DNA from: a virus
Lineage: Duplodnaviria > Heunggongvirae > Uroviricota > Caudoviricetes
Virus record (IMG/VR): IMGVR_UViG_2602041549_000013
Span: 1 to 15,722 of that record
DNA length: 15,722 nt
Reading direction: 5' to 3' (one strand)
This document shows, piece after piece, positions 2,052-15,722 of this stretch. The position numbers and the translations under genes are program-made. Within the stretch, counting starts at the first letter, position 1. Each line of letters starts with the position of its first letter. Below the pieces are notes generated by a model. The model made no database searches and was not told where the DNA came from. It was given only the letters and a program-made list of their open reading frames with translations.

Positions 2052-3818
2052 ATGAACACCACACTGACACCCGCAGATCTCGATCCCCGTCGGCAGGCCA
2101 TGCTGCTGTACTTTCAGGGATACCGCGTAGCCCGCATTGCTGAAATGCTGGGCGAGAAAGTTGCAACCGTTCACAGCTGGAAAAAACGCGACAAGTGGGG
2201 TGACTATGGGCCGCTGGATCAGATGCAGCTCACCACCGCCGCACGCTACTGCCAGCTCATCATGAAGGAGCATAAAGAAGGGAAAGATTTCAAAGAGATT
2301 GACCTGCTGGCGCGCCAGTCTGAGCGCCACGCGCGGATCGGCAAGTTTAACAATGGCGGCAACGAAGCCGACTTAAACCCTAACGTCGCCAACCGCAACA
2401 AAGGCCCACGCCGTCAGCCTGAAAAGAATGTTTTCACCGATGAACAGATTGAGAAGCTGGAAGAAATTTTCCATTCCTCCATGTTCAACTACCAGCGCCA
2501 CTGGTGGGAAGCCGGAAAAACCAACCGCATCCGCAACCTGCTGAAGTCACGCCAGATCGGCGCGACCTTCTATTTTGCCCGTGAAGCCCTGATTGACGCC
2601 CTGCTTACCGGACGTAACCAGATTTTCCTTTCTGCCAGTAAGGCACAGGCCCACGTCTTCAAACAGTACATCATCGACTTTGCCAAAGAAGTGGAGGTGG
2701 AGCTGAAAGGCGATCCGATGGTGCTTCCCAACGGGGCCACACTGTATTTCCTCGGCACCAATGCCCGCACTGCCCAGAGTTATCACGGCAACCTGTATCT
2801 GGATGAATATTTCTGGATACCGAAATTCCAGGAGCTGCGCAAAGTGGCTTCCGGTATGGCTATTCACAAAAAATGGCGACAAACCTATTTTTCCACGCCA
2901 TCCAGCCTGACACACAGTGCTTATCCGTTCTGGTCCGGTGCGCTGTTCAACCGTGGGCGCAACAAAGCCGATAAGGTGGACATCGACCTGTCCCACAGCA
3001 ATCTGGCCCCCGGCCTGCTGTGCGCAGACGGGCAATACCGCCAGATAGTCACCGTGGAAGATGCAGTGCGCGGCGGATGTAGCCTTTTCGACCTCGATCA
3101 GTTGCGCATGGAGTACAGCCCGGACGAATACCAGAACCTGCTGATGTGCGAGTTTGTGGACGATCTCGCGTCCGTGTTCCCGCTCAGCGAGCTGCAGGCA
3201 TGCATGGTGGACAGTTGGGAAGTCTGGACCGACTTTCATGCTCTGGCCCTGCGCCCGTTTGGCTGGCGCGAAGTGTGGATCGGTTATGACCCGGCAAAAG
3301 GTACGCAGAACGGCGACAGCGCCGGATGCGTGGTGGTGGCACCGCCAGCCGTGCCGGGCGGTAAGTTTCGCATTCTTGAGCGTCACCAGTGGCGCGGGAT
3401 GGACTTCCGCGCCCAGGCTGACGCAATCAAAAAACTGACCGAGCAGTACAACGTGACCTACATCGGCATCGACTCAACCGGCGTTGGTCACGGGGTTTAC
3501 GAGAACGTGAAAGCGTTCTTTCCTGCCGTCCGGGAGTTTGTCTACAACCCCAACGTTAAAAACGCCCTGGTTCTCAAGGCCTACGACATTATCAGCCACC
3601 GCCGTCTGGAGTTTGACGCCGGATATACCGACATTGCGCAGTCATTTATGGCAATCCGTCGCGCCACCACCGCCAGTGGCAACCGCCCGACCTATGAAGC
3701 CAGCCGCAGCGAAGAAGCCAGCCACGCCGATCTGGCATGGGCAACGATGCACGCACTGTTTAACGAACCGCTGCAGGGCGAATCCGCCAATACCAGCAAT
3801 ATTGTGGAGATTTTTTGA
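2052..3818 (+). CDS. P: terminase large (ATPase) subunit (P2 gpP-like), 588 aa
   Basis: Long ORF divergent from O; size and N-terminal sequence consistent with P2 gpP; its stop overlaps the start of the portal gene. Confidence 0.85.
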   Translation: MNTTLTPADLDPRRQAMLLYFQGYRVARIAEMLGEKVATVHSWKKRDKWGDYGPLDQMQLTTAARYCQLIMKEHKEGKDFKEIDLLARQSERHARIGKFNNGGNEADLNPNVANRNKGPRRQPEKNVFTDEQIEKLEEIFHSSMFNYQRHWWEAGKTNRIRNLLKSRQIGATFYFAREALIDALLTGRNQIFLSASKAQAHVFKQYIIDFAKEVEVELKGDPMVLPNGATLYFLGTNARTAQSYHGNLYLDEYFWIPKFQELRKVASGMAIHKKWRQTYFSTPSSLTHSAYPFWSGALFNRGRNKADKVDIDLSHSNLAPGLLCADGQYRQIVTVEDAVRGGCSLFDLDQLRMEYSPDEYQNLLMCEFVDDLASVFPLSELQACMVDSWEVWTDFHALALRPFGWREVWIGYDPAKGTQNGDSAGCVVVAPPAVPGGKFRILERHQWRGMDFRAQADAIKKLTEQYNVTYIGIDSTGVGHGVYENVKAFFPAVREFVYNPNVKNALVLKAYDIISHRRLEFDAGYTDIAQSFMAIRRATTASGNRPTYEASRSEEASHADLAWATMHALFNEPLQGESANTSNIVEIF

Positions 3819-4855
3819 TGGGAAAGAGTAAGAAGAACCGAGCTGCGGCGACGAAACAGATCCAGCTTAAAAGTCAAACTACAGCCGAAGCATTCAGCTT
3901 CGGCGATCCCGTTCCTGTTCTGGACCGCCGTGAACTGCTGGACTATGTGGAATGCGTACAGATGGACCGTTGGTATGAGCCGCCCGTCAGCTTTGACGGA
4001 CTGGCGCGCACCTTCCGCGCCGCCGTGCATCACAGTTCCCCGATTGCAGTAAAGTGCAACATTCTGACCAGTACCTATATCCCTCATCCGCTGCTCAGCC
4101 AGCAGGCTTTTTCGCGTTTTGTGCAGGACTATCTGGTATTTGGTAACGCCTACCTGGAGAAACGCACGAACCGATTCGGTGAAGTTATCGCCCTTGAGCC
4201 TGCCCTGGCAAAATACACCCGACGTGGATTAGACCTGGATACCTACTGGTTTGTGCAATACGGCATGACAACGCAACCGTATCAGTTCACGAAAGGCAGC
4301 ATTTTTCACCTGATGGAACCGGATATCAACCAGGAGATCTACGGCCTGCCCGGTTATCTTTCTGCCATTCCGTCAGCCCTGCTCAACGAGTCCGCCACGC
4401 TGTTCCGTCGAAAGTATTACATTAACGGCAGTCATGCAGGCTTCATCATGTACATGACCGACGCCGCGCAGAACCAGGAGGATGTAAACAACCTCCGTAA
4501 CGCGATGAAAAGCGCCAAAGGACCAGGTAACTTCCGCAATCTGTTTATGTACTCGCCTAACGGCAAAAAGGACGGACTTCAGATCATCCCATTGTCAGAA
4601 GTCGCGGCGAAGGATGAGTTTCTGAATATCAAAAATGTCAGCCGCGATGACATGATGGCAGCGCACCGTGTGCCACCGCAAATGATGGGGATTATGCCGA
4701 ATAATATTGGGGGGTTTGGGGATGTGGAGAAGGCAAGCCGTGTATTCGTCCGAAATGAGCTAATGCCACTACAAAAGCGATTACAGGAGATGAATGATTG
4801 GCTTGGCAAGGAGGCGATACGGTTTGATACCTACTCGCTAGATATAGCCCCATAA
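3818..4855 (+). CDS. Q: portal (capsid completion) protein (P2 gpQ-like), 345 aa from ATG 3818
   Basis: ATG at 3818 overlaps the P stop TGA (ATGA coupling); the ORF track starts 3 nt earlier at a TTG. Size and position match P2 gpQ. Confidence 0.85.
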   Translation: MGKSKKNRAAATKQIQLKSQTTAEAFSFGDPVPVLDRRELLDYVECVQMDRWYEPPVSFDGLARTFRAAVHHSSPIAVKCNILTSTYIPHPLLSQQAFSRFVQDYLVFGNAYLEKRTNRFGEVIALEPALAKYTRRGLDLDTYWFVQYGMTTQPYQFTKGSIFHLMEPDINQEIYGLPGYLSAIPSALLNESATLFRRKYYINGSHAGFIMYMTDAAQNQEDVNNLRNAMKSAKGPGNFRNLFMYSPNGKKDGLQIIPLSEVAAKDEFLNIKNVSRDDMMAAHRVPPQMMGIMPNNIGGFGDVEKASRVFVRNELMPLQKRLQEMNDWLGKEAIRFDTYSLDIAP

Positions 4856-4857
4856 TA

Positions 4858-4884
4858 AGAAAAGCCACCGTTTGGTGGCTTTTC
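4858..4884. terminator. bidirectional intrinsic terminator between convergent Q and the kinase operon
   Basis: GCCACC-GTTT-GGTGGC hairpin flanked by an A-run upstream and TTTTCTTC downstream, lying between the Q stop (4855) and the - strand stop at 4890. Confidence 0.6.
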
Positions 4885-4889
4885 TTCAT

Positions 4890-5630
4890 TTACTCAATAG
4901 GTTCAAACTCATCTTGAGGAATCAGCGTCGATTGACAGGCTTGGCTTAGTACCCCTGATAATTTACATAATAACCGATAGTTATGAGGAGCATCATCGCT
5001 AATCTTTTCGACCGTTAAAGTGATTGATTTTGGATCATCCAATAACATCTTCTTGATGTCATTACTTAAATACCTAGGGCAGTAACCAACGATTTCAGCT
5101 GGTTTATCTGCACGAACGACAACAGCATCCCCATCGTATTCATTTTGAAGATCCAAGCAAAGACGCAAAATTTGCCCCGGTTTCAATTCAGATACACGAG
5201 CATTAGCTAAGCTATTCAAGTAACCAAGTCCATGTAAGAAGAAAAAATGCTCAAAGTTACCATCAGAATCAAAATCAATTTTTTTGAAAATCTGCAGCTG
5301 ATCAGTGCTTCGTAAGCCTCCCGAGCGAGCAAGAATATCGATAGGATTTACCTTATCTTCTTCAAATCCAAGCCATTTAATGAAACTCGGATACTCTGGA
5401 CGTCTCGGTGATAAAAGGCGATTTTTAAAAAGAGGAAACAATTCTTCCGATACATAAGTTTCACGAACATCACTCATGCCGCTAAACTTTGTAAATTTAG
5501 AAGATTTAAGAGCACCTTTGGTATACCTGAAAACATACCCCGATTTGCGCTCTTGCAAGTTACCAACAACATGCCAGTCTCTGGTATCTGGTGCCTGCCA
5601 TGCGACGTAAACGGAGTTTGTATTAGTCAT
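4890..5630 (-). CDS. kinase partner protein, 246 aa: N-terminal HipA-N/HipS-like region (approx. aa 1-110) fused to a HIRAN-like domain (approx. aa 125-215)
   Basis: Start ATG overlaps the kinase stop (ATGA at 5627-5630). N-terminal VVGNL...YVFRY...LFPLFKNRLLSPRRPE resembles the HipA N-subdomain-1 / HipS pattern; C-terminal LGYL...LKPGQILRLCLDLQNEYDGDAVVV...VGYCPRYLS resembles the HIRAN pattern. Domain calls are from motif memory, not a search. Confidence 0.5.
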   Translation of the reverse strand: MTNTNSVYVAWQAPDTRDWHVVGNLQERKSGYVFRYTKGALKSSKFTKFSGMSDVRETYVSEELFPLFKNRLLSPRRPEYPSFIKWLGFEEDKVNPIDILARSGGLRSTDQLQIFKKIDFDSDGNFEHFFFLHGLGYLNSLANARVSELKPGQILRLCLDLQNEYDGDAVVVRADKPAEIVGYCPRYLSNDIKKMLLDDPKSITLTVEKISDDAPHNYRLLCKLSGVLSQACQSTLIPQDEFEPIE

Positions 5631-6541
5631 TCTAGTAACCTTCTGCGATTTTCCATTACCATTAACGTTGCAAATCTACGTGCACTGTCGGATATACACG
5701 ATGAAGGCACTTGGTTAAACACATCTGTAATGGAATCTTCTGTTAAAACGCTCAACTTACCTAACCAATGGTCGCGAGCGGCAACTCTCCCTTCAACTGC
5801 ATGTTGAAATGCTTCAACAGTCAGCAAGGGCTTTTTATCAGTTTTTGCTTTGAATAGCTCAGAGCGAGCTTTTCTTACAAAACATGGGATTTGTCGATTT
5901 TTATCTTTAGTATTAAGCCGTTCGCTACGCTCATCATCTAACATCTCCCTTCCTAAACTAGCGGCATGATCGTATGTTGGACACAAAAACTGCTCACCAG
6001 TTTCATTGTTAAGCATGATTGCCCAATTTTCATGGTGGCGATCTTGATTACTCACAAGTGCATCGAGCATCAAATATCCACAAAATACATCTGCTGCATT
6101 TAGCCCGGTTAGATCATATACACTCGGAGGAGGCTTGATAGATTCCCTATCTAAACAACCCAAGACCCTTGTGACAGTGTGTTCTCTGACCCTTACCGGC
6201 TTTTCCCCGGCTTGTAAAGGCCCAGGATAATCGAATGTCGAACTGTGAAGCACTTCATTTCCCATTACCATCCGGAAACCAGATGGAATGATATTCTGAG
6301 TCACCACACCGAATCGACCATTGTATCGCGCCAAATCATAGCTAGCATGTGGAATGTTAAGCAAATGACATAACTCAGCAGCACACTTTTCAGACCAATG
6401 CTCGCCAGTACCTGGCCTAGAGTACTTAAACAACTGCAAATTTACAGTGTCATCGGAGAAATAGAACCAAAACTTCTCTTTGGTTCCTAACTGTTCAAGA
6501 TCGTTAGCTACGGGGCTAAGCTCTACCAATTGGTATGGCAT
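5627..6541 (-). CDS. short HipA-family (HipT-like) Ser/Thr protein kinase, 304 aa
   Basis: Gly-rich loop GTKEK near the N-terminus (aa 19-23); catalytic motif D167-R-H-H-E-N172 and downstream LCPTYD191 match the HipA catalytic and Mg-binding aspartate motifs. Region is visibly AT-richer than the phage backbone. Confidence 0.75.
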   Translation of the reverse strand: MPYQLVELSPVANDLEQLGTKEKFWFYFSDDTVNLQLFKYSRPGTGEHWSEKCAAELCHLLNIPHASYDLARYNGRFGVVTQNIIPSGFRMVMGNEVLHSSTFDYPGPLQAGEKPVRVREHTVTRVLGCLDRESIKPPPSVYDLTGLNAADVFCGYLMLDALVSNQDRHHENWAIMLNNETGEQFLCPTYDHAASLGREMLDDERSERLNTKDKNRQIPCFVRKARSELFKAKTDKKPLLTVEAFQHAVEGRVAARDHWLGKLSVLTEDSITDVFNQVPSSCISDSARRFATLMVMENRRRLLE

Positions 6542-6693
6542 CTGACATCCCTGTTTAGCGGATTATGAATAAGTTAGGTTCCATTTTATCCAAACATTGT
6601 CAAATACCCTAAGATTTATTAGATGATAGAGCGATACTGTATGCATGTCCAGCAATCAAATCAATATATAACTCTTATATGGCTTAACGCGCG

Positions 6694-6712
6694 CTCGTAT
6701 CCCCGCCACGCC
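6694..6712. other. candidate cohesive-end (cos) site
   Basis: Reverse complement GGCGTGGCGGGGATACGAG shares its first 13 nt with the 186-type cohesive end as I recall it (GGCGTGGCGGGGAAAGCAT); orientation and position beyond Q are as expected. Recalled sequence, not verified. Confidence 0.35.
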
Positions 6713-6761
6713 TGCCCGCTTTATGTAGTGGTTTTCATGCAGGTGCATGATCTACGCAAAA

Positions 6762-6781
6762 GCCCGCCAGTTCTGGCGGGC
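6762..6781 (-). terminator. perfect 9-bp stem hairpin next to the cos candidate; possible - strand terminator or part of the cos/terminase region
   Basis: GCCCGCCAG-TT-CTGGCGGGC; on the - strand it is followed by TTTTGCG. Confidence 0.35.
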
Positions 6782-7054
6782 CTTAGCAAAAACGATCCTC
6801 AAACGATCATGCAATCTCATGCAGCATAGACATGCACAGACGAGTAAAGCGAATCGGACTTTACGCAAGGTGAACTCCTCAGCGGGTATAATCAGTATGT
6901 CGGAAAATCTCTAAAAATAAATAATTCGGTTAACAGGTATGCTTACAAAAGCATATATTTGATTAAAAATCATGTAAGGGGGAGGATCTCAAACTGAATC
7001 GCCACGGGTTTTGCAAATTTCGATAGTCTCTCTAACGTTTCGGCTGAGGTCAAA

Positions 7055-7480
7055 ATGAAAAGCTTTTACGTATTAATTTTAATTCTGGTTGCAAGCTTTG
7101 TTAGCGTCCCAGTTCAGGCGGTAACAGCTAAAAACTATGAGAAAGGAACTAAAGCTCAACAGAAATCAATAGCTTACCTTTCATGTGCATTCTATGGCAG
7201 TAGCACACAATTAGATCCTAGCTACACGGGGCAAGTACCTACAGCCGATATCAAGATATTACAGAAAGCAGCTTACCACGCTTACAACGATGCGCTCTCA
7301 TACTTAGGCTATGAGGAACCAGATCACGAACAACGCATAATTGATTATGCTGAATTTGTGGCGTCGCAAGAAGCTGTGTTATGGGATAAGCCGGGAATGA
7401 ATGGAAAGCAGGTAACACTAATTGCTCGTTCTCTCTACAATGAGAGTAACTGTAACTTGTTACTGGACTCAATTAAGTAG
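7055..7480 (+). CDS. secreted protein of unknown function, 141 aa, with a cleavable signal peptide
   Basis: RBS GAGGT upstream of the ATG; N-terminal MKSFYVLILILVASFVSVPVQA with AxA-type cleavage site; two Cys in the mature part; AT-rich gene and upstream region. Confidence 0.55.
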   Translation: MKSFYVLILILVASFVSVPVQAVTAKNYEKGTKAQQKSIAYLSCAFYGSSTQLDPSYTGQVPTADIKILQKAAYHAYNDALSYLGYEEPDHEQRIIDYAEFVASQEAVLWDKPGMNGKQVTLIARSLYNESNCNLLLDSIK

Positions 7481-7639: not shown

Positions 7640-7873
7640 TTAATGCAGCCAGCTGTCGTCTTCCCACACCTTCTGCATAATTTTCATCACTTGTTTTCTT
7701 TCTTCGTCCAGTTGCAGTCCGGTCAGTTCCACACCGTTAGAGCTACCTTTGCGGATGCGAATTACCGTTTTGGGATACAGGGGGCGCAGATTGCGGTAAA
7801 GCTCTGATTCAAGGGCGTCCAGGGTAGACTGGTTAATCTTCTGCTCTTTATCGATCATTATTTCAATGCGCAT
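7640..7873 (-). CDS. DinI-family protein, 77 aa from ATG 7873
   Basis: MRIEIMIDK...LDALESEL...YP...WEDDSW aligns with the E. coli DinI pattern; GAGGTG RBS 6 nt upstream of the ATG; the longer ORF-track start at 7945 is not used. Confidence 0.8.
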   Translation of the reverse strand: MRIEIMIDKEQKINQSTLDALESELYRNLRPLYPKTVIRIRKGSSNGVELTGLQLDEERKQVMKIMQKVWEDDSWLH

Positions 7874-7883
7874 AAAAGTCACC

Positions 7884-8072
7884 TCAACTGATGACATCCA
7901 TTGAGCGGTTGTATTCGTGAGTTCTGATTTTTGCCATGAGTTCATCAGTCAACTCAGAAACCCACTGCAGAGCCAGCCCCTTCTCTTCATCACTACACTC
8001 ACTAGCCGCTACAAGCTTAAGAAAAAAATCAATGCGCTGGAGCTTCAAAGACTCCAAAAAATAGTCCTGCAT
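7884..8072 (-). CDS. small SOS-regulated protein, 62 aa; possible Tum-like antirepressor
   Basis: First gene downstream of the LexA box; AGGAGG RBS before ATG 8072; forms an operon with the DinI-like gene. The 97-aa version from 8177 would contain the LexA box and is rejected. Function is inferred by position only, by analogy with the 186 tum operon as I recall it. Confidence 0.45.
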   Translation of the reverse strand: MQDYFLESLKLQRIDFFLKLVAASECSDEEKGLALQWVSELTDELMAKIRTHEYNRSMDVIS

Positions 8073-8225: not shown

Positions 8226-10640
8226 TTAATACAGGTTCCGCCACTGATCATCTTCCTGCAAACGCTGGTTCCGATAGAAGATACGCAGGCCTGCTCCTGA
8301 CGGAATACTGCCTCCGCGAAGGAGTAAATCGACCTCTTTCTCGCTGCCATCAAATCCTCTGGACTTCAGCTCATACACGAGCTGCAGTCGCTGATGGTCT
8401 GTAATTCGCTGTTTGTAGTCTTTACGCCGTTTCGGTTTCACCAGGCGTAACCTTGCAGCCAGTTCCCGGCGCTCTTTTTTGCTCATACTGTGCAGGTAAT
8501 CGTGCAACTCCTTGTCATCCATGCGGGTAATGTCCGTTCTGGTATCCCCATCAGCTGATTTGTCTTTCCCTTGTTGGTTCAAATTTTCAGCAAGGGGACA
8601 GTTATTGCCACGAGTCCAAGGGGCGCAAGCGCCCTGGTCGGCTGCCGCCTCCTGAACGTCAACGGCCTTACGAACCATTTTCCACTTCACTGCATGAGTG
8701 CAGATCTTGCCCTCTGCAATGGGTGACCAGATGCCATAAATACGAATACCGTGATCGCCATAGGCGGTTGGCTCTTCGTTGATTTCATAAGCGGTTCTGA
8801 TGAGGTGATATTTGCGGGAAACCAGTACGCCGCCCTGCTTCATGATGTAGGTGGCAAAACAACCAGCATCAGCAGCAGCCAGGATGGCATCAAGGCGCGG
8901 GTTATCCAGTACCGGCGCACCTGCTTTTTTGTCACCCTGTTGCCTTGCCGCCTGACCAGCCAGCAATCGCAGTTCACGGTAAGCCTGACGCCCCGGAATG
9001 CCAAAGAAGCGGAATTGCTGAACACGATGCAGAGACGCCCAGGCATTAACGTATTCAGCGTTATCACGCAGGGATTTACCCGTTTCCTTACTGATCTCGC
9101 CAGCCAGACCACACCCGTCAATATTCTTACTGATATATTTCGCAATGTAGCTTGTCGGCGTTCCTTTGCGCGGGTTTATCAGCTCAGACTTAAAGCGTGG
9201 CCCCGTGTTATTGCCCAGCTCCTCGCGGTCTTCACGGATGGCAAACTTACGCAACAATGCAGTAATGGCGCGGCGGTCTTTTTTACGCATGAAACACAAC
9301 AGGTGCCAGTGAACTGTGCCGTCATGATGCGGCTCAGCCACCCGCACGCCATACCAGCGCAACCCGGCTTTGTGCATAGCCTTACGAAATGCAGCAAACA
9401 TGCCGACCAGATAATCGCTGCTTTGTCTTACTGTCGCGTTGGTCCAGGTCGGGTTTGGCCTGCCGTTATTTAGCGTGGAATGGAAACGTGACGGACAGGT
9501 GATGGTGTAGAAAACGGCGCAGTCACCACGCATTTCCGCGATAAGCTCCAGGCCTTTAACACAGGCCATCATCTCATTGCGGCGATGCGCCGGGTTGCTG
9601 CTGCTGGCGTTTACCACATCCTCCATGTTCAGCGTGTCGCCGTCTTCGTTCACCAGTTCATGAGAACGGAAAAACTCCAGCGACTTACGGCGCTGCTCAC
9701 GTTTATGCATCACGGCTTCATAGCTGACATAGGGAGATGCTTTTTTGCTGACCAGGCAGACAGCACGCAACTGCTCTTCCCGCCATTCGCAACGCATCTT
9801 CCATAATTTCCGATACCACCAGTCGGCGCACAGCATACGCGCCAGCGAACCCGGAATGAGTTCATAGGGCACAGGTTTGCGGCGGTTTCTTTTCCGGCGG
9901 AGTTGCTCAAACGCAGGCGGTATGACATCCAGTCGCAGGGTTTCTGCAGCCACCTTTTCCCATGTCTTGCGGATTTCTTCTGGCTTAACATCATCGGAGG
10001 CGTACAAATCACCACAAGCGGCATCAAGACACATGCTCATATGCGCAGCGACAAGGGTAGACAGGCGTTTCACCTGATCCTGACTCATTTCAGGCAGGAT
10101 CAGCAGACCGTCCAGCCCTTCATGGCTTGCCATAAAACGAAAAGATGCAGATAGCTGGCTGTCGCGTACATGCTCCAGTCGTTCCAGACATGGCTTAATC
10201 GTCTCACGCAAATAGCGGGAATAAGCCTTTGGCCTGCCCAGGCTGCTGAAATATTCAATACGTTGCATCAGCGGCTTGCTGATATGGGAAGGCTGGGCGT
10301 TGACGTCGGCCAGAATGACCATGTCCGGATTAAAACGCTGCTGCTCATGCGCCATCTTTGCCCGGCTAATGAGCTTATCCTGCTCCATTTCGCGTTGGAC
10401 AGGATCACGGGATTCATTAAAGAAATAACGCTCCCAGACCTGATCACTCAGTGCCTCGCGGCGCAACTGTTCCTGCTCGTTATCGGCAGCGTACAGAGTG
10501 ATCAGGTTTGAAAGCGTAGAAACCGGCGCAACTTCCGCCGGGTCCAGATAAGGGTTAATGGCCTTTTTCGGGCTGTTCCATGAGAATGCTGCGGCAGCCT
10601 CGTTAAAGCCGCAGCAGTTGTTCATATCGGCATGACTCAT
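8226..10640 (-). CDS. A: rolling-circle replication initiator / endonuclease (P2 gpA-like), 804 aa
   Basis: HUH-type motif VHWHLL and active-site tyrosine motif YIAKYISK typical of gpA-type Rep proteins; start ATG overlaps the dam stop (ATGA). Confidence 0.85.
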
Positions 10641-11494
10641 GCACGTACTCCGTACACGGCAGAACTATCCACGCCACGCGAATAATCAAATCCCATCCAG
10701 CAGCGCGGCCCGGAAACAGCAATGATTTCTGTTGCTGATTTACCCTCGCCAGCTGCCACACCGATGCTGCGTTTTACCTTGATATAGTGGTGAGTAAAAT
10801 TGCGATACAGCGAACGGATCAGGGATGTGTCACTGTTAGAAACAATGACTGGATGTCCTTCTGATGACCGATGTTCAAGAACGGATGCCAGGTGATACTG
10901 GTCATCTTCAGTGAAACCATCAGTGTGATAGCCGGAAAACGTACCGTCATACGGCGGATCGCAATACACCACATCTCCCGCCTTCAACATCGCCAGCGTT
11001 TCATCAAAGCTGGCGCAGATAAACGTTGCTCGCTGGGCTTTTTCTGCAAATGTGCGAAGTTCTTTTTCAGGGAAATACGGATTTTTATAATTACCGTAGG
11101 GGATGTTGAAATGCCCGCTCTTGTTATAGCGACATAAACCACGGTAACCGTGACGATTAAGATACAGGAAATATACCGCTTTCATGAAATCAGTAATTTC
11201 AGTTGAGCAGTTAAACTCCTGCCTTATGTTGTAATAAGCCACCTCCCTGTTTGCGATCTCAAATAAAACTCTGGCGCGAGATATAAACGATTCACAATCA
11301 GCGGCAACCTTTTTATAGAGGTTGATTAAATCAGGATTAATATCCGCAACCAGATAGCTGGGATAATCCGTTTCCATCATCACAGCACAGGAACCCGCGA
11401 AAGGTTCAACCAGTCGCGGGCCAGCAGGAAGGTATTTTTTCAGTTCTGGCATAATGGCGGTTTTATTTCCCGCCCATTTCAGGATGGTGCTCAT
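10637..11494 (-). CDS. dam: DNA adenine methyltransferase (Dam family, orphan), 285 aa from ATG 11494
   Basis: N-terminal KWAGNK and FAGSCAV motifs and catalytic DPPY motif; ATG 11494 overlaps the upstream zinc-finger gene stop (ATGA) and follows a GGAGGTG RBS; the ORF-track start at 11554 is not used. Confidence 0.8.
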
Positions 11495-11718
11495 ACAGCA
11501 CCTCCGTTGTAATGTTTGCCTTTCAGTTCTGCGATTTCCTGACAGGTAATGCAAAGCTGCACTCCCGGAATGGCGCGGCGTCGTGCTGGCGGAATTGGCG
11601 CTTCACATTCAATGCAAAGTACGCGTGACACGCCCGGTGATTTGGCACGGGCTGCACGGATATGGCGCTGGCGTTCTTCTTCAACGCGCTGCTGTACGAG
11701 ATCCATTGCATCAGCCAT
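11491..11718 (-). CDS. TraR/DksA-family C4 zinc-finger protein, 75 aa
   Basis: Two CxxC pairs (CIECEAPIP ... CITCQ) in a small basic protein; common position in P2-like early operons. Confidence 0.7.
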   Translation of the reverse strand: MADAMDLVQQRVEEERQRHIRAARAKSPGVSRVLCIECEAPIPPARRRAIPGVQLCITCQEIAELKGKHYNGGAV

Positions 11719-13355: not shown

Positions 13356-13559
13356 TTAAGCAGACAAAGCATCAACAGTCAGAGCAGCCAGGTTAATCAT
13401 TACCTTTTCACGTTTTTTGTCTTTACGAAGACGATGACGAGGTAGTCGGCCATCAGCCAACATGTCGTTAATCGTATCAATAGAAAGGCCAGTCAGTTCG
13501 CTATAACGTTCGATTGTGACATGTGGTGTATTCAGAGTAATTGAAATGTTAGGTGTCAT
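13356..13559 (-). CDS. apl: Apl/Cox-like excisionase / transcriptional regulator, 67 aa
   Basis: First gene of the - strand lytic operon, divergent from cI; small HTH protein with basic C-terminal tail; AAGGA RBS. Confidence 0.6.
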
Positions 13560-13704
13560 AAGGCAACATTCCTTCTAGATATGGCTTGTGGCGAGCCGTT
13601 GTTTGTCGTGATTAGTAGTGAAGGCTCCAAAAGAACACTTCTGGTTCAACTTTAAGATCGCTTTTGGAATCTGTCAACGAATTTTGGATTTCTTTGGAGG
13701 ACTT
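13560..13704. promoter_or_regulatory. lysis-lysogeny switch region between apl and cI (candidate face-to-face pR/pL promoters and operators)
   Basis: Intergenic region between divergent apl and cI; - strand TTGACA (13673-13678) with TAAAGT 18 bp downstream is a candidate lytic promoter; direct TTTTGGA repeats at 13662-13668 and 13683-13689. Confidence 0.35.
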
Positions 13705-14274
13705 GTGGATTTCAATAGCGGCGGTAAGAAAGCCATAGAACGTTTAGTTGAAGCATATGGGTTCGGTACCCGTCAGGCTCTATGTGATCATTTAGGTGTT
13801 TCTAAGAGCACCATGGCAACGCGCTATATGCGTGATATTTTTCCAGCAGATTGGGTAATCCAGTGCGCCCTTGAAACGGGCACCTCGCTTAATTGGCTAA
13901 CAACAGGGCATGGTTCAAAGCAAGCATCAGCAAATACAAATACTATAGAAGTAGAAAAATATTTATTGTCTGATGGAGCATTGCAGAAAGACGGTTTTTA
14001 TATTTTTGATAAGGGATTTCTACCCTCTACGTTTAAAAAACCTTTTGTCATCACAGATAACAATTCTGAATTTATTTGTGATAAAGAATTTGATGATATA
14101 CGTGATGGTAAATGGGTAATAAGTATTGATGGCGAAATAACGATCCGTGACATTACTCGTTTACCCGGTGGAAGAATCTTCGTCGAGGGTGGAAACAGAG
14201 CCTTCGAATGCAAGATAGAAGACATTGAAATAATTGGTAAAATTATAAGTTTAACAGTCAAGTATGTTAAATAG
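13705..14274 (+). CDS. cI: immunity repressor CI (186 type), about 189 aa
   Basis: HTH RQALCDHLGVSKSTMATRY followed by ETGTSLNWLTTGHG, typical of XRE-type phage repressors; divergent from apl/cII and upstream of int. Start is ambiguous: GTG 13705 after GGAGG is preferred over GTG 13618 or TTG 13684. C-terminal half is AT-rich. Confidence 0.7.
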   Translation: MDFNSGGKKAIERLVEAYGFGTRQALCDHLGVSKSTMATRYMRDIFPADWVIQCALETGTSLNWLTTGHGSKQASANTNTIEVEKYLLSDGALQKDGFYIFDKGFLPSTFKKPFVITDNNSEFICDKEFDDIRDGKWVISIDGEITIRDITRLPGGRIFVEGGNRAFECKIEDIEIIGKIISLTVKYVK

Positions 14275-14289
14275 TACCGGGAGGAAACT

Positions 14290-14481
14290 ATGCTTGGTAA
14301 GGTATTTTTTGTGGTTTTGTCATGTTCTTTGTTATTAAACCCACTAACTACCTATGCTAGAAATTATCCCTGCTCAGGGAAAAAGGGAGGTGTTTCTCAC
14401 TGTACCTCAGATGGCAAATTCGTTTGCAATGATGGAACTATTAGTAAATCCAAAAAAATCTGTACTAAAAACTCACGATAA
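14290..14481 (+). CDS. small Cys-rich secreted peptide or lipoprotein, 63 aa, unknown function
   Basis: Strong RBS GGGAGGA; hydrophobic N-terminus with either a signal-peptidase I site (TYA) or a lipobox-like VLSC; four Cys in a roughly 40-aa mature part; AT-rich. Confidence 0.4.
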
Positions 14482-14669
14482 CTTTTGCTTTTATATCTGC
14501 GTCTAAAATAAAAATGAGCCGCAGGTTAACCGCAAAAGTTACATGCTCACATAGCAAAAAGAATAGCCAACTTAATTATGGCTTCAGTGAGATGTATGGT
14601 CGTAGGATTTCATACATTGACACTGGTTATACATACAGTGAAAATGCTCTCTACTGGAGGGCATTTTTT

Positions 14670-15722
14670 ATGGCAGTACGAAAACTCACCACTGGGAAAT
14701 GGCTTTGCGAATGTTACCCCGCCGGACGAAGTGGGCGTCGTGTGCGTAAACAATTCGTCACCAAAGGCGAAGCACTGGCTTTTGAGCGCCACACGATGGA
14801 AGAAACCGAAGCAAAGCCCTGGCTGGGTGAATCAGTGGATCGTCGAACACTGAAAGACGTGGTTGAGCTATGGTTCAAACTACATGGTAAATCTCTGACA
14901 GCTGGGCAGCATGTCTATGACAAATTGCTGTTGATGGTTGACGCTCTGGGCAATCCTCTTGCAACCGATCTCACCTCTAAAATGTTTGCCCACTATCGAG
15001 ATAAACGCCTGACAGGCGAGATCTACTTCAGCGAGAAATGGAAGAAAGGAGCAAGCCCGGTCACCATTAACCTGGAGCAAAGCTATCTAAGTAGTGTTTT
15101 TAGCGAACTATCCCGTCTGGGCGAATGGTCGTATCCGAACCCACTGGAGAACATGCGAAAATTCACCATCGCAGAAAAAGAGATGGCATGGCTTACCCAT
15201 GAGCAGATTGTTGAATTGCTGGCTGATTGCAAACGTCAGGACCCAATTCTGGCACTGGTAGTTAAGATATGCTTAAGCACAGGCGCACGCTGGCGTGAAG
15301 CCGTAAATCTTACCCGCTCACAGGTGACCAAATACCGAATTACCTTTGTCAGAACGAAGGGGAAGAAAAACAGAAGCATCCCTATCAGTAAAGAGCTTTA
15401 CGAAGAGATCATGGCGCTTGATGGGTTCAATTTCTTCACAGACTGCTATTTTCAATTTTTATCCGTGATGGAAAAAACGTCTATCGTGCTCCCTCGCGGT
15501 CAACTCACACACGTTCTGCGCCATACGTTTGCGGCGCACTTCATGATGTCGGGTGGAAACATTCTGGCCTTACAAAAAATTCTCGGACACCACGATATAA
15601 AAATGACTATGCGTTACGCACATCTGGCACCGGATCATCTGGAAACGGCGCTCCGTTTCAATCCTCTGGCAACGCTGCCAAGTGGCGACAAAGTGGCGGC
15701 AGCGGTTGGCATTACCCCGTAA
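14670..15722 (+). CDS. int: tyrosine integrase (P2/186 type), 350 aa from ATG 14670
   Basis: N-terminal MAVRKLTTGKW...GRSGRRVRKQF typical of P2-family integrases; C-terminal R...HxxR...Y catalytic pattern (LRHTFAAH ... MRYAHL); GGAGGG RBS 8 nt upstream of ATG 14670; the ORF-track extension from 14514 is rejected. Confidence 0.85.
   Translation: MAVRKLTTGKWLCECYPAGRSGRRVRKQFVTKGEALAFERHTMEETEAKPWLGESVDRRTLKDVVELWFKLHGKSLTAGQHVYDKLLLMVDALGNPLATDLTSKMFAHYRDKRLTGEIYFSEKWKKGASPVTINLEQSYLSSVFSELSRLGEWSYPNPLENMRKFTIAEKEMAWLTHEQIVELLADCKRQDPILALVVKICLSTGARWREAVNLTRSQVTKYRITFVRTKGKKNRSIPISKELYEEIMALDGFNFFTDCYFQFLSVMEKTSIVLPRGQLTHVLRHTFAAHFMMSGGNILALQKILGHHDIKMTMRYAHLAPDHLETALRFNPLATLPSGDKVAAAVGITP

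Follow-up and report, generated by a model that had tools for sequence, protein, structure and literature searches.

The window analyzed here, a stretch of 15,722 nt, is a P2/186-like prophage of Escherichia coli, and it carries between its structural and replication genes a small minus-strand gene, hipN, whose product raises a question: can a putative restrainer of a HipA-type kinase also carry its own sensor of DNA ends? The original prediction, made from the letters of the DNA, was that the protein fuses a HipS-like domain to a HIRAN domain and might couple phage replication intermediates to the release of a neighboring kinase. The module itself is already known. Gerdes, Baerentsen, and Brodersen (2021, mBio; PMC8262856) predicted it by computer and named it hipIN, for a kinase (HipI) and a putative antitoxin (HipN), HipN being described as HipS-like plus HIRAN and HipI as a small kinase without N-subdomain 1. 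The idea of DNA-end sensing leading to abortive infection was published in the same paper, in a model by which the HIRAN domain recognizes the DNA ends or replication intermediates of an invading phage, whereupon the kinase is activated and the infection aborted (PMC8262856). The supposition that HipA-like kinases had been associated with HIRAN domains bioinformatically, and left uncharacterized, is thus correct (Gerdes et al., 2021; PMC8262856). Full-text literature searches, with subscription-only papers outside their scope, returned no experimental study of a HIRAN-Hip kinase pair, and that absence is therefore not proof. As the idea is already in print, the value of the present analysis lies in opening the way to initial experiments on the function of a Hip kinase that is coupled to HIRAN.

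Results

Organization of the Gene Pair

The features of the window are collected in Table 1. hipI lies upstream of hipN, the hipI stop codon and the hipN ATG share a 4-nt overlap (ATGA), and the two genes are translationally coupled. In a consensus scan the promoter candidate upstream of hipI had 10 of 12 consensus matches, the count of sigma-70-like sites in the region being not above shuffled expectation. Between this promoter-like site and the ATG there is no operator-like (HipB-like) palindrome, inverted repeats occurring only in the cos block. At the opposite end of the pair, the hairpin separates the stop of hipN (4890) from that of the convergent portal gene Q (4855) and is likely a bidirectional terminator; it was not among the calls of a terminator scan.

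Table 1. Features of the window in window order (positions are those of the whole stretch).
Feature	Position	Strand	Description
Capsid and scaffold genes			First in window order; P2/186-like prophage
Terminase ATPase gene	2052-3818		
Portal gene Q	3815-4855		Convergent with hipN; followed by the hipIN pair
GC-rich hairpin	4857-4879	none	GCCACC-AAAC-GGTGGC, T-runs on both strands; read directly from the sequence
hipN	4890-5630	minus	ATG-initiated ORF, 246 aa; predicted two-domain partner of HipI
HIRAN domain of hipN	4947-5267	minus	Residues ~122-228
HipS-like domain of hipN	5277-5630	minus	Residues 1 to ~118; predicted HipA N-subdomain-1 fold, in trans
hipI	5627-6541	minus	Ser/Thr kinase core of the HipA superfamily, 304 aa, N-subdomain 1 absent; putative toxin/effector
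Sigma-70-like promoter candidate	6623-6651	minus	Upstream of hipI; TGGACA-17-TATCAT; consensus match only
Presumed cos-region block	6679-6837	none	Adjoins the hipIN promoter region on its upstream side
141-aa ORF, then DinI-like gene			Between hipIN and replication endonuclease A
Replication endonuclease A gene	8226-10640		
Genes for Dam-type methylase, CI repressor, integrase			In that order, after gene A

Prophage Setting

With a GC content of 0.40-0.43, against ~0.55 in the phage backbone and structural genes, the hipIN pair is low-GC foreign accessory cargo of a P2-like E. coli prophage. Of 5426 complete E. coli genomes, 21 have a near-identical cassette, the matches ending at 6837. A search of 50,697 deposited phage genomes gave no such copy and only six distant homologues at the protein level. 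Within 4700-7100, the sole stretch common to deposited P2-like phages (Fels-2, Klebsiella phages) is the block at 6679-6837, which we take to be cos on the basis of the P2/186 cohesive-end sequence. The P2 sequence itself had no match even with 3 mismatches allowed; this block contains, at 6701-6712 on the minus strand, the single copy of a variant core, GGCGTGGCGGGG. If the block is so interpreted, the cassette is flanked by cos and by the 3′ end of Q. hipIN occupies the cos-proximal gpA-gpQ hotspot, with portal gene Q on one side and replication gene A on the other.

This hotspot is known to hold many defense systems, several of them new and validated, and is the location of P2 old and tin (Rousset et al., 2022). 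Table S5A of that study places WP_000185757, the exact HipN, in the P2 gpA-gpQ hotspot, in the arrangement “hypothetical + hypothetical + HIRAN + hypothetical + DinI,” and another of its tables has a Vibrio prophage entry annotated “HIRAN-kinase: HipA_C + Couple_hipA/HIRAN” (Rousset et al., 2022). There is no HIRAN entry among the constructs cloned in that work, and HipA and HIRAN appear in its supplementary tables only, not in the main text.

Two Domains in HipN

Every motif on which the two-domain reading had been based is present in the hipN translation (VVGNL...YVFRY, LFPLFKNRLLSPRRPE, LGYL, LKPGQILRLCLDLQNEYDGDAVVV, and VGYCPRYLS). The proposed division into two domains stands, whereas the lengths first given for them, ~110 and ~90 aa, were slightly short: the limits fall at ~1-118 and ~122-228, followed by an 18-aa tail.

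Residues 127-228 score 51.3 bits with Pfam HIRAN (PF08797), whose cut-off is 24.7 (E 1e-13); the match covers positions 3-95 of the 96 in the profile, and the same family matches all 28 of the aligned HipN homologues. An AlphaFold2 model built on this 28-sequence alignment (pLDDT 88.9, pTM 0.83) retrieved lp_0118 and six HLTF HIRAN entries in Foldseek, at E-values of 3e-5 to 1e-3, and its predicted HIRAN fold is of the type seen in HLTF, Rad5, and lp_0118. By sequence alone, a profile of 98 family representatives, which are 30-62% identical to the window protein and also served for the conservation counts, reached lp_0118 at E 1.9e-5 and HLTF at E 0.014; run against the PDB, the same profile matched HIRAN structures and not HipS. 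Domain search, fold comparison, and family profile thus agree that the C-terminal half is a HIRAN domain, and the comparison of an AlphaFold model with the HLTF fold, which had been suggested as a check, came out as anticipated.

The pocket of HLTF that receives the 3′-OH or 3′ end is formed by R71, Y72, N90/N91, Y93, D94, and K113. In the 98-sequence profile alignment, HipN Q162-N163-E164-Y165-D166 falls on HLTF N90-N91-P92-Y93-D94, and G182-Y-C-P-R186 on G109-H-L-K-K113, while an extension by eye of the HG-x-R-x-L motif sets Y137 opposite HLTF Y72 and G136 opposite HLTF R71. Across the 98 relatives, Asn is kept at residue 163 in 94, Asp at 166 in 90, Gly at 182 in 96, and Arg or Lys at 186 in 80; position 137 (Y72, by eye) is His, Tyr, or Phe in 87, position 165 (Y93) is Tyr, Phe, or His in 54, and position 136 (R71, by eye) is Arg in 57 and Gly in the window protein. 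To judge from these counts, the putative 3′-end pocket is kept largely, not completely; it is similar to that of HLTF and not identical, because the R71 equivalent is Gly136 and the Y93 equivalent is variable (54/98). DNA-binding motifs are reported to be kept in most bacterial HIRAN domains (PMC8262856). The pTM of 0.83 suggests that the two domains of the HipN model pack rigidly, a feature that is neutral on DNA-induced release and speaks neither for nor against it.

The N-terminal half is a more distant match. Pfam Couple_hipA (PF13657) aligned with residues 20-72 at 16.3 bits, below the cut-off of 22.5 (E 0.014), and gave weak matches in 22 of 28 homologues (best E 7.3e-4), so that the proposed Pfam search of both halves returned HIRAN above its cut-off and Couple_hipA beneath it. 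With hhalign, a 98-sequence profile of the N-domain aligned with HipS(O127) plus HipA-N at a probability of 91% (E 1e-6, 89 columns), pairing HipN 20-117 with HipS 12-101, and with HipS alone at E 3.8e-5, the HipS sequence being from E. coli O127:H6 (E2348/69) and the HipA sequence from K-12; a shallow HipN profile against HipA alone was not significant (E 0.1). HipS and HipA were also among the Foldseek matches of the HipN model, and the HipS / HipA N-subdomain-1 fold extends across the whole N-domain. The HipS-like assignment was accordingly upheld by profile alignment and fold match; the evidence from the predicted fold is strong, and Pfam alone would fail. Crystallin matches, obtained when a profile of close HipN homologues was run against the PDB, were rejected as spurious.

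Of the two domains, the HipS-like one is the better conserved, with a mean top-residue frequency of 0.52 among the 98 relatives vs. 0.45 for HIRAN. Its best-conserved block in these relatives is L64-F65-P66-x-F68-x-N70-R71...R77-P78-E79-Y80, and the loop N70-R71-L-L-S-P-R-R77-P78-E79-Y80 corresponds to the HipS loop of Glu63 and Trp65, the alignments being gapped there and singling out no HipN residue as the counterpart of Trp65. In HipS, these two residues are inserted beside the Gly-rich loop of HipT, by which means HipS neutralizes the kinase (PMC10627512).

The Neighboring Kinase

For the product of hipI, Pfam HipA_C scored 20.9 bits, below the cut-off of 30.5, and hhalign of a shallow kinase profile against a single HipA was not significant (E 0.058). 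For the single HipN and HipI sequences, phmmer against PDB sequences gave no meaningful match, and NCBIfam has no model for either protein. The AlphaFold2 model of HipI has a pLDDT of 83.5 and a pTM of 0.85, and the protein presents a core of the HipA/HipT/CtkA type from which N-subdomain 1 is absent and in which the catalytic motifs are kept. Across 28 homologues no variation occurs in the Gly-rich loop (E16-QLGTKEK-23), at K39, in the catalytic segment N165-QDRHHENW-173, or in Y190-DHAAS-195; D167, N172, and D191 align with HipA D309, N314, and D332, and the catalytic residues align with HipT D210 and D233. At the level of these motifs, HipI is predicted to be catalytically competent. An alignment of the Gly-rich loop by eye puts the invariant Glu16 at the position of the autophosphorylated HipA Ser150 / HipT Ser57; Thr20, also invariant, lies inside the loop.

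A kinase core without N-subdomain 1, next to a gene that supplies such a subdomain in trans, means that the logic of a split HipA holds. The gene adjoining hipN codes for just such a HipA-superfamily core, in accord with the view of HipN as the partner of a kinase, and since both of its domains passed sequence and fold tests and its neighbor is a kinase core, HipN is read as a HipS-like plus HIRAN kinase partner acting in trans. The kinase is small, its Gly-rich loop sits close to the N-terminus, its core motifs are in place, and the downstream gene encodes HipS-like and HIRAN domains; by kinase type and partner-gene architecture, the window pair is assigned to the hipIN modules.

Distribution and Co-inheritance

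A word-indexed search of 5.8 billion proteins found 535 HipN homologues, and an exhaustive profile search found 1599 clusters at 50% identity, 1001 of them at E ≤ 1e-10 and 310 at E ≤ 1e-30; among the best 150 of the 1599 clusters, nearly all were full length, at 235-270 aa. hipN is a conserved, real gene and not a chance ORF. Two longer members of the family were seen, one joining a secretin to HIRAN, probably a chimeric gene call, and one with a weak, below-threshold, nuclease-like C-terminal extension.

In homologue searches, HipN and the kinase diverge in parallel, on contigs of the same size, in many taxa: Pectobacterium versatile (83% identity for HipN and 83% for the kinase; contigs of 85,286 bp), Serratia quinivorans (76 and 77%; 5,027,226 bp), Pantoea agglomerans (73 and 73%; 687,531 bp), Buttiauxella sp. 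(61 and 61%; 888,547 bp), and Vibrio coralliilyticus (56 and 60%; 481,739 bp). hipI and hipN are co-inherited across the Gammaproteobacteria. The order of kinase then HIRAN was found at all six of the other loci inspected. Adjacent or overlapping, the two genes recur within an integrase island of Stutzerimonas, next to a filamentous prophage of Vibrio, in the temperate Clostridioides difficile phage phiCDKH02, where they lie between the lysogeny module and the integrase, and in a 14-kb Vibrio Vinavirales element, where they adjoin its integrase.

Discussion

A Model for hipIN

The present data permit the assembly of a model of how hipIN may act, to which we assign a probability of about one half: restraint of HipI by the HipS-like domain, sensing of 3′ ends by HIRAN, release of the kinase, and abortive infection. 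In the lysogen, the HipS-like domain would dock on HipI near its Gly-rich loop and hold the kinase off, much as HipS does on HipT. A superinfecting phage would yield free DNA 3′ ends, possibly from the injected linear genome, from rolling-circle or recombination intermediates, or from degraded host DNA, and these ends could be bound by the HIRAN domain of HipN. Binding may then change or release the HipN-HipI complex, and the freed HipI would phosphorylate an essential translation factor, by analogy with HipA and HipT an aminoacyl-tRNA synthetase. The resulting growth stop would abort the infection and so protect the lysogen population together with its prophage. Residence in the hotspot, carriage by temperate phages, and low GC make an anti-phage defense role of hipIN plausible. 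Free 3′ ends also arise when the host replicates and repairs its DNA, as well as from the DNA of the prophage, and how self-triggering would be avoided is a difficulty shared by all sensing models.

The HipS-like fold alone does not imply inhibition, because the same N-subdomain belongs to the active full-length HipA kinase. HipN could instead complete HipI, as N-subdomain 1 does in HipA, with the HIRAN domain tethering the holo-kinase to 3′ ends, where its substrates would be DNA-bound proteins, either from the invader or from the replication or repair machinery of the host. Such recruitment in place of release is unlikely: in the two split-HipA systems for which HipS-HipT structures are solved, HipS serves to neutralize the kinase, and no DNA-associated substrate of a HipA-family kinase was found in the literature searched. 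A further possibility is that the pair is a plain addiction or stabilization toxin-antitoxin module, one that would maintain the prophage or its hotspot cargo by post-segregational killing and in which HIRAN would bind DNA for autoregulation or localization in place of the HTH antitoxin HipB, with no phage sensing involved. In the window, the pair is not accompanied by an adjacent HTH gene of the HipB type, so that another DNA-binding function might be needed; toxin-antitoxin modules are also common on mobile elements, and the pair was on mobile DNA at every locus inspected. However, characterized HIRAN domains bind DNA ends (PMC8262856). The region between the promoter-like site and the ATG likewise offers nothing like an operator palindrome, and the defense-rich hotspot, with other defense genes nearby such as DarT/Macro, favors a role in defense. 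We know of no sequence-specific operator binding by a HIRAN domain. Addiction as the whole account is therefore quite improbable, although stabilization and defense are not mutually exclusive roles for hipIN.

A related scheme keeps the sensor and changes its ligand. The HIRAN pocket might sense short 3′-OH deoxy-oligonucleotides or dinucleotides from DNA breakdown, and not the ends of long phage DNA, so that hipIN would respond to nuclease activity during infection and ligand binding would switch HipI on. It derives from the finding that about one-third of the dedicated deoxydinucleotide nucleases (diDNases) of Actinobacteria directly adjoin HipA-plus-HIRAN pairs, a link that the 2025 NAR paper calls uninvestigated (PMC11706625); these diDNases would then be signal-clearing enzymes. 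The conservation of the residues aligned with the HLTF N91/D94 motif is in keeping with such a ligand. However, a diDNase gene is absent from the window and from the loci inspected, and the reported association concerns a remote branch of the family, which leaves fragment sensing by this pair highly improbable. If it were true, hipIN would be a kinase-based analogue of nucleotide-signal immune pathways, with DNA breakdown products as the alarm.

Should the model of restraint and 3′-end-triggered release prove true, hipIN would be a defense system whose antitoxin carries its own DNA-end sensor, a eukaryotic-type fork-remodeling domain would be linked to a persistence-type kinase of the HipA family, and HIRAN domains, widespread but unstudied in bacteria, would gain a first bacterial function. 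The copy described here is a convenient test case, because it comes from E. coli, measures only ~1.8 kb, and brings along a promoter region and a terminator. To the existing literature the analysis adds structure-level confirmation, from predicted models, of both HipN domains and the kinase; it also maps the HIRAN motif residue by residue, shows the family to be far larger than the 14 modules sampled before, and places the cassette precisely, with cos and Q on either side.

Relation to Known Systems

Among the closest known systems are the HipBST systems of E. coli O127:H6 and Legionella pneumophila, with HipS as antitoxin and HipT as kinase. hipIN differs from these in having no HipB-like HTH gene, in the reversed gene order (kinase first), and in the fusion of the HipS-like domain to HIRAN, the sequence similarity of that domain being marginal and its Pfam match below the cut-off; in addition, the position of HipT Ser57 / HipA Ser150 appears, by eye, as the invariant Glu16 of HipI. 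The kinase CtkA of Helicobacter pylori (PDB 3akj), a secreted pro-inflammatory kinase, is also among the closest known systems to HipI. In the HipL kinases, the order of kinase core, HipS-like domain, and HIRAN equals that of the hipI-hipN pair, but in one polypeptide, whereas hipIN is two genes with a 4-nt overlap.

For the HIRAN half, the comparisons are with HLTF, Rad5, and lp_0118 (PDB 3k2y), a bacterial stand-alone HIRAN protein. In HLTF and Rad5, the HIRAN domain is joined to SNF2 translocase and RING ligase modules and functions in fork reversal; in hipIN, unlike these, the partner of HIRAN is a kinase regulator, and the R71 equivalent is Gly in HipN. The position of HLTF Phe142 (NAF), which serves duplex binding, is reported to be missing in most bacterial HIRAN domains (PMC8262856).

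The pair has also entered catalogs of defense candidates, as PADLOC PDC-M03 and as the “HIRAN-kinase” of Rousset et al. (2022). Both genes of the window match the PADLOC candidate over their full length (PDC-M03A, E 2.7e-122; PDC-M03B, hipN, E 6.8e-93), and in PHROGs both fall in families of unknown function, hipN in phrog_8026. As for hipIN as first defined, HipI, at 304 aa, falls within the family range of 279-321 aa, and proteobacterial members exist (PMC8262856). That survey comprised 14 modules, compared with at least 310 HipN clusters (E ≤ 1e-30) and up to 1599 here, and the copy in the window sits in a defined prophage hotspot.

Sequence features of HipI and related cassettes

The Gly-rich loop of the HipI kinase (5627-6541, minus strand) spans residues 16-23 (E16-Q-L-G-T20-K-E-K23) and includes an invariant Thr20. 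By-eye alignment apparently places an invariant Glu at the position of the serine autophosphorylated in HipA (S150) and HipT (S57), and HipI may be regulated by autophosphorylation in a different way from these two kinases. Supplementary file 6 of Rousset et al. (2022) contains E. coli P2 hotspots that carry hipIN together with DarT/Macro (DarTG), as well as P2 hotspot loci with a second, divergent variant annotated as 'DUF5051 + HipA_C + HIRAN', which is possibly the one represented by kinase cluster P0156 (71% identity; 146 sequences in the cluster). The kinase-HipN pair in the Stutzerimonas contigs L003-L006 has two genes immediately upstream, one of the HTH_3 type and one resembling a PhdYeFM antitoxin (~6480-7010 in L004); they may form a toxin-antitoxin module of their own or supply a third component akin to HipB, and neither gene is present in the window. 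Two longer proteins were recovered by the representatives search. The first, P0255, has 408 aa and continues beyond its HipS-HIRAN part for ~180 aa at the C-terminus; the match of this extension to the restriction-endonuclease-like domain pPIWI_RE_REase is weak and below threshold (E 0.0017). The second, P0267, in which secretin domains are fused to a HIRAN domain, is probably a chimeric gene call.

Hotspot organization and placement of hipIN

The 141-aa ORF is a second cargo gene of the hotspot, independent of hipIN; its N-terminus is signal-peptide-like (MKSFYVLILILVASFVSVPVQA), and Pfam and PADLOC returned no match for it. This ORF is missing from most other hipIN-carrying genomes, because the matches of those genomes end at 6837. 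Elsewhere in the window, a second low-GC stretch (~13500-14700, GC 0.37-0.39) contains the repressor gene. The hairpin between Q and hipN looks like a bidirectional terminator that would serve both genes, and it is missing from the output of the automatic terminator scan.

Sequence features of the window
Feature	Position	Strand	Remarks
Hairpin GCCACC-AAAC-GGTGGC	4857-4879		T-runs on both strands; separates Q (stop at 4855) from the convergent hipN (stop at 4890)
GGCGTGGCGGGG	6701-6712	-	Inside conserved block
15-nt inverted repeat	6756-6787		Inside conserved block
141-aa ORF (WP_000834899)	7055-7480	+	GC ~0.40; phrog_7437 (function unknown)
DinI-like protein gene	7640-7945	-	In hotspot
D12-class (Dam-type) adenine methyltransferase gene	10637-11554	-	Downstream of replication gene A
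CI-type repressor gene	13618-14274	+	In second low-GC stretch
Integrase gene	14514-15722	+	Continues past window end

Within 4700-7100, the sole part common to other P2-like phages is a conserved block of ~160 bp (6679-6837). This block is probably the cos region, a label that rests on the P2/186 cohesive-end sequence. The cassette would therefore have cos on one side and the 3' end of the portal gene Q on the other. In P2, old and tin are located on the gpA side, whereas hipIN in the present prophage is not.
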